A stretch of 63,879 bases of DNA, counting the filler, from Octopus bimaculoides (taxonomy: Eukaryota): NCBI RefSeq assembly GCF_001194135.2. It is 5 parts of 5 records of this genome, joined end to end, with 100 filler letters (N's around TTAATTAATTAA, not from the genome) between each part and the next. Parts side by side here need not be neighbours in the genome. Positions count along the whole stretch, not along the records: positions 1 to 16,049 come from NC_068988.1; positions 16,150 to 30,226 come from NC_069000.1; positions 30,327 to 55,981 come from NC_068996.1; 2 more parts are not named here. The stretch is one strand, 5' to 3'. The translations under genes were made by a program, and so were the position numbers. Below, piece after piece: positions 384-53,868 of the stretch (positions are counted from its first letter, which is position 1; each line of letters begins with the position of its first letter). The notes under the pieces were generated by a model. That model saw only the letters and a list, made by a program, of their open reading frames with translations, was not told where the DNA came from and ran no database searches.

Positions 384-423
384 CCACTGATGAGGTCACA
401 GAAGTGTGACGAAAGAACTCTGG
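384..423 (+). ncRNA. Minimal type-I hammerhead ribozyme motif
   Basis: CCA-CUGAUGA-G-GUCACA(GAAG)UGUGAC-GAA-AG(AA)CU-C/UGG: canonical core, 6-bp stem II, 3-bp stem I, CUC cleavage triplet. Confidence 0.75.
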
Positions 424-598
424 CCGAAATAAGATTAAGATTAATGTAATATAAAGCTGAAGCAAATTAACACCAAATATACAGTGCGTTTGTTTTTATT
501 GGCTAAACTGGCAACATGACCATCCCCAAGTACAACAACAACATATATATATATATATATATATATATATATATATATATATATGTGTGTGTGTAGAA

Positions 599-1993
599 GG
601 CAGACTGTATGACACATGTGTACGAACATCCATGCTACATGGCAGTGAAACATAGGCCGTGACTGCTGAGGACATGCGTAAGCTTGCAAGGAATGAAGCC
701 AGTATGCTCCGATGGATGAGTAATGTCAGTGTGCATATTAGACAGAGTGTAGTAACTATCTTGAGAGAAAAGTTGAACCTACGAAGCATCAGTTGTGGTG
801 TGCAAGAGAGACGATTGCGCTGGTATGAACATGTGGCGAGAATGGATGAGGATAGCTGCATGAAAAAGTGCCACACCCTAGCGGTTGAGGGAACCCGTGG
901 AAGAGGCAGGCCTAGGAAGACCTGGGATGAGGTGGTGAAGCACGACCTCCGAACATTGGGCCTCACCGAGGCAATGACTTGTGACCATGACGTTTGGAAA
1001 TATGCTGAGCATGAGAAGACCCGGCAAGCCAAGTGAGACCAAAATCCAAGGCCTCTGCCAGGGATGTAACCAGCCCACTTACGCATAACATTCCTTCATT
1101 GGACACTAAACTCTGCTTGCGAAGACATGGTGAGGCAAGTGAAATCGAAATCGAACTAAATTTGTAGGAACTTTANNNNNNNNNNNNNNNNNNNNNNNNN
1201 NNNNNNNNNNNNNNNNNNNNNNNNNNNNNNNNNNNNNNNNNNNNNNNNNNNNNNNNNNNNNNNNNNNNNNNNNNNNNNNNNNNNNNNNNNNNNNNNNNNN
1301 NNNNNNNNNNNNNNNNNNNNNNNNNNNNNNNNNNNNNNNNNNNNNNNNNNNNNNNNNNNNNNNNNNNNNNNNNNNNNNNNNNNNNNNNNNNNNNNNNNNN
1401 NNNNNNNNNNNNNNNNNNNNNNNNNNNNNNNNNNNNNNNNNNNNNNNNNNNNNNNNNNNNNNNNNNNNNNNNNNNNNNNNNNNNNNNNNNNNNNNNNNNN
1501 NNNNNNNNNNNNNNNNNNNNNNNNNNNNNNNNNNNNNNNNNNNNNNNNNNNNNNNNNNNNNNNNNNNNNNNNNNNNNNNNNNNNNNNNNNNNNNNNNNNN
1601 NNNNNNNNNNNNNNNNNNNNNNNNNNNNNNNNNNNNNNNNTCGTTACCAACGCCGCCTTCCTGGCACTTGTGCCAGTGGAACGTGAAAAGTCATTCGAGC
1701 GAGATCGTTGCCAGTGCCGATGGACTGGCTCCTGTGCAGGTGGCACGTATAATACACCATTTCGAACGTGGCCGTCGCCAGTACCGCCTGACTGGCCTTC
1801 ATGCCGGTGGCACGTAAAAGCTCCCACTACACTCTCTGAGTGGTTGGCGTTAGGAAGGTCATCCAGCTGTAGAAACTCTGTCAAATCAGATTGGAGCCTG
1901 GTGTCGCCTCCTGGTCCACCAGTCCTCAGTCAAATCGTCCAACCCATGCTAGCATGGAAAGCAGACGTTAAACGATGATGATGATGATGATGA
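599..1993 (+). mobile_element. RTE-clade LINE 3' fragment: ORF C-terminus (599-1036), long 3' UTR across a gap, (GAT)n tail
   Basis: GRLYDTCVRTSMLHGSET*...RRLRWYEHVARM...GTRGRGRPRKTW matches the RTE C-terminal RLRWxGHVxR / GxRxRGRPxKTW motifs, with an in-frame stop. Continuity across the N-gap is inferred. Confidence 0.8.
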
Positions 1994-2027
1994 TATCTTT
2001 TACTCTTTGACTCTTTTACTCTTTGAC

Positions 2028-2422
2028 TCTTTTACTTGTTTCAGTCATTTGACTGCGGCCATGCTGGAACACCGCCTTTAGTCGAGCATATCGACACCAG
2101 GACTTATTCTTTGTAAGCCTAGTACTTATTATATCAGTGTATTTTGCCGAACCGCTAAGTTACAGGGATGTAAACACACCAGCGTCGGTTGTCAAGCGAT
2201 GTTGGGGGCACCAACACAAACAAATAAACACACACACATATATACATATACATATATGCGACGGGCTTCTTTCTGTTTCCATCTACCAAATCCACTCACA
2301 AGGCTTTGGTCAGCCCAAGGCTATAGCAGAAGACACTTGCCCAAGGTGCCACGCAGTGTGACTGAACCCGGAACCATGTGGTTGGTAAGCAAGCAACTTA
2401 CCACACAGCCACTCCTGCGCCT
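2028..2422 (-). mobile_element. tRNA-derived SINE, family 1 (about 400 bp, internal CA/TA microsatellite)
   Basis: The minus strand begins aggcgcaggagtggctgtgtggtaag...gttccgggttcagtc (A/B-box-like) and ends gactgaaacaagtaaaaga. There are more than 15 copies in the window. It is probably one of the described octopus tRNA-SINE families (OK/OR1/OR2); the exact assignment is unverified. Confidence 0.85.
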
Positions 2423-3148
2423 ATATATATATATATATATATATCTTGCAACACAAATTCATAAACATGTGTGTGTGTGTGTGTGTGTGTGTGATGGATA
2501 TTTGATACTAAACATTTCAGATAATATATATATATATATAATATAATATATGTACTAGCAGCTAAGCCCACTTTGACCAGGTCAGTTTGGATGATGTGGC
2601 TGTAAAACCTGCTCTATATAAGCATTCAACTTATGTTAAAAAACAATTTTAGAATGACTTTTTTCTGTCAAAATGCTAAAAATAACTGACCAACAAGAAA
2701 AAAACCAGCCAAGATTCAACCAAATCAAAAAATAAATCCAAATATTAAGCAAACAAGGATGAACCATCCCACTTCCATTGCATGCGCGCACATACACACA
2801 CATACAAACACAGACACATACATGCACACACACACACATTCACTTTTACTTACACATGCATATATTCACACACAGTTGAAATGCTGTTTGATTTATTTTT
2901 TCAGCGTATAATTTTCATCATCCCACTACCAAGTAACCTCCTAAGTGGACCTAGTGCAGATATGAATAGAATATGGGAACTGGTATTAAGGAAGGATACA
3001 GAAATATTAGGTTTATAAGCCCTAAAATTCACTCTATATTGCCCTTGGGCATATAGTGTAATGGTTAAGAGCATGGGCTACTAACCCTAAGATTGAATAA
3101 ATAAAAAAATAAAAAAATAATAATAATAATATCAGCAAAAAAATACCT

Positions 3149-51358: not shown

Positions 51359-51448
51359 ATATAAATGTATATAACCTATTATTTCTGTCTATGCCCTTTA
51401 TAAATATATATATATATTAATATATATATTTTATATATTTATGCATAG

Positions 51449-51590
51449 ATGTGTGTGTGTGTGTGTGTGTGTGTGTGTGTGTGTGTGTGTGTGTGTGTGT
51501 GTGTGTGTGTGTGTGTGTGTGTGTGTGTGTGTGTGTGTGTGTGTGTGTGTGTGTGTGTGTGTGTGTGTGTGTGTGCGTGTGTGTGTGTTT
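51449..51590. repeat. Long (GT)n microsatellite; one of dozens of di-, tri- and tetranucleotide runs in the window
   Basis: Read directly from the sequence. Confidence 0.95.
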
Positions 51591-53057
51591 TGAGTATCGT
51601 CAAGAAAGAAATAAGCCTTCACTTTTGTAACTCTCGCTCTCAGGAATGTAATGCGATGCTGTGAAACCAAAGAGATTGGCTCTTGGAAATTTTAAGTAAT
51701 GACGCTATTATTCATAAATTGTAATATTAATTAAATAATTAATTGATTAAAAATATGTTTGTTAAAACAAAAGACGGAATCGTAACAGCTGGATGCCTGG
51801 TGGATCAGGAGTGATGGATGAATGAATACTTAAATGACCTCCAAATTTCGAAACGGTGTTGTGTTACCAACAGAAGAAATCAAAATGGTTAGAACATCCA
51901 GAAACAATTCCAATCATTTCGAACGACTGAAGGTGAATGAGTGCTAAAGAAGGGAAAGTGCGTACGAAATGAAAACAAAATAGTAGTAATTAAATAGAAA
52001 ATACATAGAAATAAGGAAAGAAAATGGGGAAAGGAAGCATGAACGGAAGGGGTGAAGGACAAATTATGGAGGAAGGAGAGGGAACTTAGAGAGAAAGAGG
52101 AGAGGATTTTACTGGGGATAAGGAGTTGTTAAATAGCGAGGAGGAAGGTGGAGAGGAAGAGGAGGTGAGTGGAGAGTAGAGAGAGGAGGAGAAGGAGATG
52201 TAGTGGCAAAAAATGAAGAAGGTTGGCTAGGTGGTGCCATGAGAAGGAGTAGAGCTGCAGAATGAGGAGGAGGAGGAGGAGGAGGAGGAGGAAGGAAAGG
52301 AAATGGAGGAGCGGTTGGAAAGAACGGGGATGAAGAGAGAGATAAATGTGTAGGAGTATAACGGTAAGATCGGCAGAATGAGGAACGATAATGTCGGGTG
52401 GGGNNNNNNNNNNNNNNNNNNNNNNNNNNNNNNNNNNNNNNNNNNNNNNNNNNNNNNNNNNNNNNNNNNNNNNNNNNNNNNNNNNNNNNNNNNNNNNNNN
52501 NNNNNNNNNNNNNNNNNNNNNNNNNNNNNNNNNNNNNNNNNNNNNNNNNNNNNNNNNNNNNNNNNNNNNNNNNNNNNNNNNNNNNNNNNNNNNNNNNNNN
52601 NNNNNNNNNNNNNNNNNNNNNNNNNNNNNNNNNNNNNNNNNNNNNNNNNNNNNNNNNNNNNNNNNNNNNNNNNNNNNNNNNNNNNNNNNNNNNNNNNNNN
52701 NNNNNNNNNNNNNNNNNNNNNNNNNNNNNNNNNNNNNNNNNNNNNNNNNNNNNNNNNNNNNNNNNNNNNNNNNNNNNNNNNNNNNNNNNNNNNNNNNNNN
52801 NNNNNNNNNNNNNNNNNNNNNNNNNNNNNNNNNNNNNNNNNNNNNNNNNNNNNNNNNNNNNNNNNNNNNNNNNNNNNNNNNNNNNNNNNNNNNNNNNNNN
52901 NNNNNNNNNNNNNNNNNNNNNNNNNNNNNNNNNNNNNNNNNNNNNNNNNNNNNNNNNNNNNNNNNNNNNNNNNNNNNNNNNNNNNNNNNNNNNNNNNNNN
53001 NNNNNNNNNNNNNNNNNNNNNNNNNNNNNNNNNNNNNNNNNNNNNNNNNNNNNNNNN

Positions 53058-53275
53058 TGGAGGACGAGGAGGACGACGACGAGGAGGACGACGACGAGGA
53101 GGACGACGACGAGGAGGAGGAGGAGGAGGAAGACGTGGAGGAGGAGGAAGACGTGGAGGAGGAGGAAGACGTGGAGGAGGAGGAAGACGTGGAGGACGAG
53201 GAGGAGGAGGAGGTCGACGACGACGAGGAGGAGAACGAGGAGGAGGAAGACGTGGAGGACGAGGACGAGGATAGC
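53058..53275. repeat. GAG/GAC-rich low-complexity repeat
   Basis: gaggaggacgacgac and gaggaggaagacgtg units next to a gap. Confidence 0.8.
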
Positions 53276-53527
53276 AGAAATGGGGAGAGAGAAAAAGAAG
53301 CATGTAAAATGGATTACAGCCACTGAACAAGAGAAAAAAACGTTATTTACATGCAAAATAAATTTAAATAAAATAATCATAATAAAGAATAGAATAGAAT
53401 ATATATCTTTCATTTTTTTTGTGTGTGTGTGTTGGCTGAGTGTTGAAACTTTTGGATAAAATAAGAGTCGAAACCGAAGAAGGCACGGCGGCAAATATTT
53501 GGTGGCAAGAATTTCACATATTCTTTT

Positions 53528-53868
53528 ATTCTTTTATCTGTTCTATATTTAAGAGAAGAGGAATTATTTACATTATTTACATTATTTACATTTGACGGAT
53601 ATTTGTCCTTATCTTGTTTGTTGTTAACACAACGTTTCGACTGATATACCCTCCAGCCTTATTATTACTAATAATAGTAATAATAATAATAATAATAATA
53701 ATAATATAATAATAGTAACATCGTTAGGAATGAGAACCCAGGTTCGAAATTTCCCCAAAACACCTAATGAAGGCTGGAGGGTATATCAGCCGAAACGGGT
53801 TAATAACAAACAAAATGAGGACAAATATCCGTCAAATGTAAATAATGTAAATAATTCTTTTATCTGTT
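53528..53868. mobile_element. Family D head-to-head inverted pair around a (TAA)n spacer, inside a 15-bp target duplication
   Basis: Direct repeat attcttttatctgtt (53528-53542, 53854-53868); D on - at 53543-53660, D on + at 53726-53853. Confidence 0.85.

Follow-up and report, generated by a model that had tools for sequence, protein, structure and literature searches.

What carries the minimal type-I hammerhead ribozyme motifs that are scattered over a stretch of the Octopus bimaculoides genome? The stretch, hereafter the window, comprises 63,879 nucleotides (nt) of assembly GCF_001194135.2, joined from parts of five records. It consists of 10,132 N and 53,747 called bases, and is AT-rich and dense in microsatellites. 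A sequence-only reading had assigned the motifs to a guild of unrelated, non-autonomous short repeats. The four intact and about eight decayed motifs are very probably the 3′ ends, as remnants of pseudo-long terminal repeats (pLTRs), of several families of Penelope-like elements (PLEs), or short derivatives copied by PLE enzymes.

The motifs were counted with two descriptors. The strict one requires CUGANGA, zero to two extra nucleotides, a stem II of at least 4 base pairs (bp), zero or one extra nucleotide, GAAA, a paired or palindromic stem III, UH, and a stem I of at least 3 bp, which is the topology of a type-I minimal hammerhead. The half-descriptor comprises the core, stem II, and GAAA, with one mismatch allowed. 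The background consisted of 100 local dinucleotide shuffles. Both descriptors were drafted after the sites of the first reading were known, so the contrast with the shuffles is inflated. The strict descriptor finds four sites: family A at 384-423 (+), with an intact core, a 6-bp stem II, and a predicted cut after 420; family C at 3841-3920 (-), with an intact core, a long stem II, and an 8-nt palindromic stem III; family D at 30368-30403 (+), intact within a fragment at 30328-30429 (+) and with a predicted cut after 30400; and family F at 33499-33558 (-), with an intact core, a 7-bp stem I, and a near-palindromic stem III. The shuffles give a mean of 0.01, and 99 of the 100 contain none. Allowing one core mismatch adds 3191-3232 (AAAA for GAAA) and 36006-36042 (CUGUUGA). 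The half-descriptor returns 11 rows, one of them an alternative parse of the 3841 site, against a shuffle mean of 0.77 (maximum 5) and none in the reversed sequence. An excess over dinucleotide shuffles is present under both descriptors. Two rows, 27472 and 60235, were dismissed as chance, about 0.8 loose matches per window being expected; the former lies antisense within what we take to be the remnant of an open reading frame (ORF) of the long interspersed element (LINE) type. The intact density is four motifs per 53,747 non-gap bases, or about 12-13 with the decayed ones included.

All coordinates listed by the sequence-only reading carry the letters described. Its statement that every motif keeps CUGANGA and GAAA applies to four of its 12 motifs, and to six of 12 with one mismatch; the motif at 53626 lacks the 5′ core, and at 43665 neither stem III nor the cleavage site is present. 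The motifs fall into about seven repeat families. The families were called unrelated, and several are indeed distinct, whereas 3190, 53626, and 53759 belong to one family, B, and 31531 (family E) is 70% like the unit of family G at 36006 by self-comparison. The same comparison finds no second copy of A, C, D, or F within the window. A family absent from the earlier list, M, has a hammerhead at 48190-48275 (-) with the core CUAAUGA and a long stem II, and a truncated second copy at 41050-41072 (+). This core occurs at 48269 and 41054, in both M copies, and also at 53764 in one B copy, and may reflect either variation at the family level or repeated decay. Stem III palindromes are perfect in B, C, D, E, and G, and imperfect in A and F. 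The stem III word is ACGU in B, E, and G, and ACAGCUGU in C and M, which are otherwise unrelated to each other. The isolated stem III duplex of C is strongly stable (-11.1 kcal/mol), and the others lie between -1.7 and +1.6 kcal/mol. When motifs are folded singly at minimum energy, stem II is recovered and the active fold mostly is not, a result that carries no information on activity.

The link to PLEs comes first from a decayed PLE ORF at 43691-45374 (-), next to which lies a half-hammerhead, H, at 43663-43689 (-). The ORF is 5′-truncated and frameshifted, and retains the reverse transcriptase (RT) core with LYQDDG, the thumb, the CxCx5C linker as CKCRDPGTC, and the endonuclease; the cysteines are invariant in the alignment. 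It is split by a repeat resembling a short interspersed element (SINE) at 44686-45092, and microsatellites lie at both ends of the ORF. An exhaustive protein search returns 2,919 relatives of the ORF at E<=0.001, and the ORF aligns in four frame-broken pieces to proteins of 713-722 amino acids across RT, thumb, and endonuclease. The best protein relative, at 61% identity, is from Octopus vulgaris, and Argonauta supplies another. When the decayed ORF was used in a word-based protein search, nothing was matched among longer proteins, and Pfam names neither the ORF nor 10 relatives, giving weak matches only. The DKT motif is present in three full-length relatives, and its region is missing from the window copy. 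H starts directly after the last homologous codons, and consists of an intact CUGAAGA, four G-C pairs, GA, and then (TA)n, into which the 3′ end of the element runs at about 43663. The chance of a loose match in sense within 300 nt of the ORF is about 0.2% by position.

Further evidence comes from the relatives, sampled as 78 loci from the best 80 of 143 confirmed, some of which are near-duplicates of one another. Of the 78, 64 extend through the end of the ORF and for 150 nt or more past it, and in 40 of these 64 a complete minimal hammerhead in sense lies 59-271 nt downstream of the ORF. No antisense hammerhead was found downstream in the 64 loci, and none in an equal-length control within the ORF. 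Eight of the 78 loci carry two sense hammerheads, as expected of two pLTRs. The stems, examined in 30 loci, are 88.5% paired against 62% in shuffles, and show 107 two-sided changes against 34, an excess over shuffles that kinship can also produce. The stem III insert, counted in 66 motifs, is 6-9 nt long with C as its first and G as its last base. Stem II opens with a G-C pair or a U.U mismatch. One related locus has a stem III identical to that of site C. A covariance model built from these Hydra-like loci, which are unrelated to the window sites, places 3839-3922 (site C) at the top of the window with E ~0.008, and 33500-33557 (site F) at E 1.5, while it picks up none of A, B, D, or E. Its second-best hit (E ~0.013) is a weak candidate at 32598-32639 (+), with a CUGUUGA core, a 4-bp stem I, and an unpaired stem III. 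Individual sites, H or 32598 for example, may be chance matches.

The insertion anatomy of family B points in the same direction. A copy at 3105-3320 (+), about 215 nt long, begins in an (AAT)n tract and contains the decayed hammerhead 3191-3232. An inverted pair occupies 53528-53868, with a left arm at 53540-53660 (-), truncated inside the core, and a right arm at about 53700-53857 (+). The 3′ ends of the pair point outward and its arms are joined by (TAA)n. It is flanked by a perfect 15-bp direct repeat (53528-53542 and 53854-53868), a target-site duplication, and the left arm is about 20 nt longer, forming a one-sided tail. A 3′-end fragment at 40747-40812 (-) has the same terminus as the other copies and no hammerhead, and a second end fragment lies at about 41066. 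The full 3′ terminus is common to three copies and falls 91 nt past the predicted cut in both copies that retain the motif. PLE insertions have been described with an inverted 5′-truncated copy and a one-sided tail of 30-40 nt. The B pair resembles them in the inverted truncated copy, the one-sided tail, and the microsatellite target, and differs in its shorter tail. Around the 3105 copy, E, the neighboring element K, and the Hydra-like element, a search for duplications found only microsatellite or short A-rich sequence. At 40747-41095, two inverted B 3′ ends flank the 5′ part of an M copy cut inside stem II, an arrangement that reads as a chimeric or nested insertion. The earlier link to PLE pLTRs accordingly finds backing in the ORF beside one motif, in the motif behind the ORF in the relatives, and in the anatomy of B.

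Reads were mapped to 30328-31640, which spans D, K, and E, at 80% likeness from four runs (two DNA contig sets, and two RNA runs of which about 6% each was used). The two DNA runs place 6,639 and 11,098 contigs on this stretch, which indicates that D, K, and E are high-copy, although mapped depth does not equal copy number. The E copy of the window, at 31400-31633 (-) between two TA tracts, has a decayed hammerhead at 31531-31567. In the DNA run X1, GAAA is restored at 31541 in 98% of the depth; almost the whole DNA depth differs at 31566; and the most frequent loose end, at 31530, provides a matching stem I strand. The majority of the E family therefore has a complete motif, and the window copy is a decayed one. 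Other copies of D diverge past 30429, which implies that the next element breaks into the window copy. The only indel listed in the D motif is a 1-nt deletion at 30387, in loop II, in about one fifth of reads, and no stem change occurs among the 40 of 240 differences listed. The RNA runs yield 2,147 and 1,810 mapped reads, about equally in both orientations and likely from many loci, and in run X21 the deepest bins lie over the D and E motifs. As a separate observation, both RNA runs show a joint of opposite strands at 30346/30375, inside the D core (27 and 22 reads, with 14 starts in each run), which is missing from the joints listed for either DNA contig set; a template switch or a transcribed inverted copy at another locus may account for it.

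Several observations weigh against a PLE origin of all these motifs. H is a half motif, missing both stem III and the site of cleavage, and reaches only E ~4 with the Hydra-like model, and it abuts the ORF, compared with 59-271 nt downstream in the relatives; a deletion must therefore be assumed, or chance. The motif regions of the window share a single 26-nt match with the DNA of the 78 loci. With 150 Hydra-like proteins, tblastn finds no ORF remnant beside A, C, D, E, F, or G, and B likewise adjoins no such match in the window. Pfam gives only two matches, at E ~0.05, over 36 read-through frames (A, C, D/K, F, G, and two other spots), a weak test because Pfam gives no real match on full-length relatives either. 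Within families, covariation is thin, as few copies per family are present in the window: the stem changes comprise one two-sided swap, a stem I G-C to C-G exchange between the E majority and the third G unit (G3), and are otherwise one-sided. The change from ACGU to AUAU at 3190 is also expected from CpG decay. Finally, read ends in the two RNA runs do not pile up where D or E is predicted to be cut, which is a weak test. Ordinary RNA-seq is reported to be likewise blank for an active PLE hammerhead, the cleavage of which was dispensable for insertion in vitro (PMC11167929).

If the motifs are PLE 3′ ends, the RT and endonuclease of a PLE would copy its RNA, starting at the 3′ end, into a nicked microsatellite or other repeat. 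Copying would usually stop early and would sometimes invert, and the last 100-300 nt, hammerhead included, would accumulate. Where the element is intact, the palindromic stem III would let two motifs of a tandem transcript pair with each other, and cleavage would be slow. Copies that are solitary or decayed, like those in the window, are predicted to be mostly inactive.

The alternative that survives best is that B and E/G are true non-autonomous elements or non-LTR retrozymes (LTR, long terminal repeat), with fixed units of 200-230 nt. Their tandem transcripts would be cut by paired hammerheads, circularized, and re-inserted by PLE enzymes. This account, which we hold to be possible rather than probable, is compatible with PLE 3′ ends, the point of difference being replication of the short unit in its own right. 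Two B copies start at a similar (AAT)n point and end on an identical base, as fixed units would, and retrozymes are described as derived from pLTRs (10.64898/2026.07.22.740005). The G tandem at 35787-36140 (+) has a period of 203 nt, a length within the range described for retrozymes of animals (PMC7229834). However, its units are just 82.6% alike and its cores, CUGUGAA at 35808 and CUGUUGA at 36011, are both non-canonical, while retrozymes are described with canonical tandem hammerheads (PMC7229834); a natural change at position 6, A6C, leads to low activity (PMC3088659). The trio of tandem variants reported earlier is thus in part a real tandem. Its first member, G1 at 35710-35776 (+), is 98.5% identical to 35787-35853, shares its CUGUGAA, and is separated from it by a 10-N gap, and is probably an assembly duplicate or allele. 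Retrozyme-type tandem arrays with intact cores are absent from the window. E reads hold other sequence beyond 31610, upstream of the window copy, and no head-to-tail or circle-type joint is found among the 15 of 58 D/E joints listed. A sequencing-run search with 35300-35776 gave no RNA run among the matches listed, and patterns for B, E/G, and D found no match in viral contigs. The non-autonomous status given to these families in the sequence-only reading is unproven, because 5′-truncated PLE ends give the same picture.

An improbable alternative is that the motifs belong to another repeat class with no PLE link, either Schistosoma-type hammerhead SINEs or inverted elements resembling miniature inverted-repeat transposable elements. 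SINEs form a large share of octopus genomes (PMC13282606), most motif sites have no neighboring ORF, and both K and E have inverted termini beside TA tracts. Element K (30423-31378) has inverted arms of 277 bp (88.8%), a 39-nt tail at one end, and then (TA)n, and is probably an unannotated PLE derivative, judging from this structure. Each K arm contains an outward-facing CUGAUGA...GAAU half-motif about 115 nt from its end, which was rejected as a hammerhead since it lacks A15.1 and a stem I partner. Against a SINE or inverted-element carrier stand the long duplication and one-sided tail of B, the absence of any descriptor match among the listed copies of the abundant SINE-like repeat (11-12 overlapping copies in the window), and the architecture itself: an extra base before stem II, a tiny palindromic stem III, and a short stem I are as described for PLEs.

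We consider it very improbable that the motifs form a guild of independent non-autonomous hammerhead elements, in copies on the scale of 10^5 and dependent on several PLE clades, in which families with a shared palindrome (ACGU in B/E/G, the 8-nt word in C/M) would dimerize and cut each other or host pre-mRNAs in trans. The significance of the motifs would be greater if host RNAs proved to be cleaved in vivo by transcribed copies.

Chance matches in AT-rich repetitive DNA are almost certainly not the explanation and are rejected for the set: the descriptors were tuned post hoc and two loose matches (27472 and 60235) look like background, yet the strict and loose counts far exceed the shuffles, the independently built model finds C, and the E majority restores the core.

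Other features lie near or between the motifs. An endonuclease remnant of the same PLE kind and older, at 45880-46243 (+), was recognized by tblastn alignment. It was rejected as an inverted copy of the element that bears H, and is treated as a separate, older copy, since its alignment to those proteins is weaker and the masked self-comparison does not show it; no clear hammerhead follows it. Inverted arms at 45685-45810 and 46530-46648 (74%) surround this remnant, and 46744-46942 is self-inverted (75%). About 35 nt past the predicted cut of F (33460-33498, -), a branch-point-like word, a pyrimidine tract, and CAG are followed immediately by GTGAG. PLE terminal repeats are reported to overlap introns. 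The region 26900-27650 (-) is presumably a LINE-type C-terminal remnant, and 656-1036 (+) we take to be an RTE-like tail, neither with a library match. The transposon debris also includes a mariner-type transposase (PF01359) at 11416-12064 (-).

For annotation, Rfam at its gathering threshold finds no hammerhead in the window and none in eight motif-bearing related loci, and no hammerhead is among the best 150 of 236 Rfam matches to the window at E<=5. The expectation that annotation would miss the motifs is correct for Rfam and probably too strong for repeat annotation, as de novo repeat finders would likely catch the carriers, which are high-copy repeats. The minimal-hammerhead descriptor would be a cheap flag by which 'unknown' octopus repeats could be marked as likely Penelope derivatives missed by Rfam gathering. 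A by-product is the consensus architecture and position of the hammerheads of Hydra-like PLEs. Neither new chemistry nor a new element class is shown; a known arrangement, reported in 2014 (PMC4209133), is extended to an octopod genome. Searches of the literature on octopus or cephalopods and hammerheads found no description of these families, and two octopus repeat papers lack the word in their main text, while a giant squid paper reports 235 Rfam hammerhead_1 matches.

Minimal hammerheads in the pLTRs of metazoan PLEs were described by Cervera and De la Pena (2014, PMC4209133), with about 2,000-9,000 mostly solitary motifs per genome in several families; as monomers they show no cleavage, and as dimers or trimers only weak cleavage. 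In Acropora, more than 6,000 motifs form 16 families (PMC7229834). The window motifs resemble those of PMC4209133 in having a type-I topology, a base left unpaired before stem II, a closing pair of G and C, a short stem I, and a small palindromic stem III. They also resemble them in forming several unrelated families, mostly of solitary copies, with some opposite-strand pairs 100-700 bp apart. In contrast to that set, the host is an octopod and a PLE ORF partner is found at one site only. Like animal non-LTR retrozymes, the window includes short non-coding units with type-I hammerheads, and the 203-nt period of G is comparable (PMC7229834; 10.64898/2026.07.22.740005); unlike them, most motifs are minimal and solitary, and the sole tandem has broken cores. 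The Hydra clade is characterized by the CxCx5C linker, the DKT motif, and (TA)n targeting (Craig et al. 2021, 10.1101/2021.04.23.441226). The window PLE differs from this clade in being truncated and frameshifted, in missing the DKT region, and in having a half-motif that abuts the ORF. It agrees with it in the C-terminal endonuclease, the CxCx5C linker, the (TA)n insertion, the hammerhead, and, in three relatives, the DKT motif.

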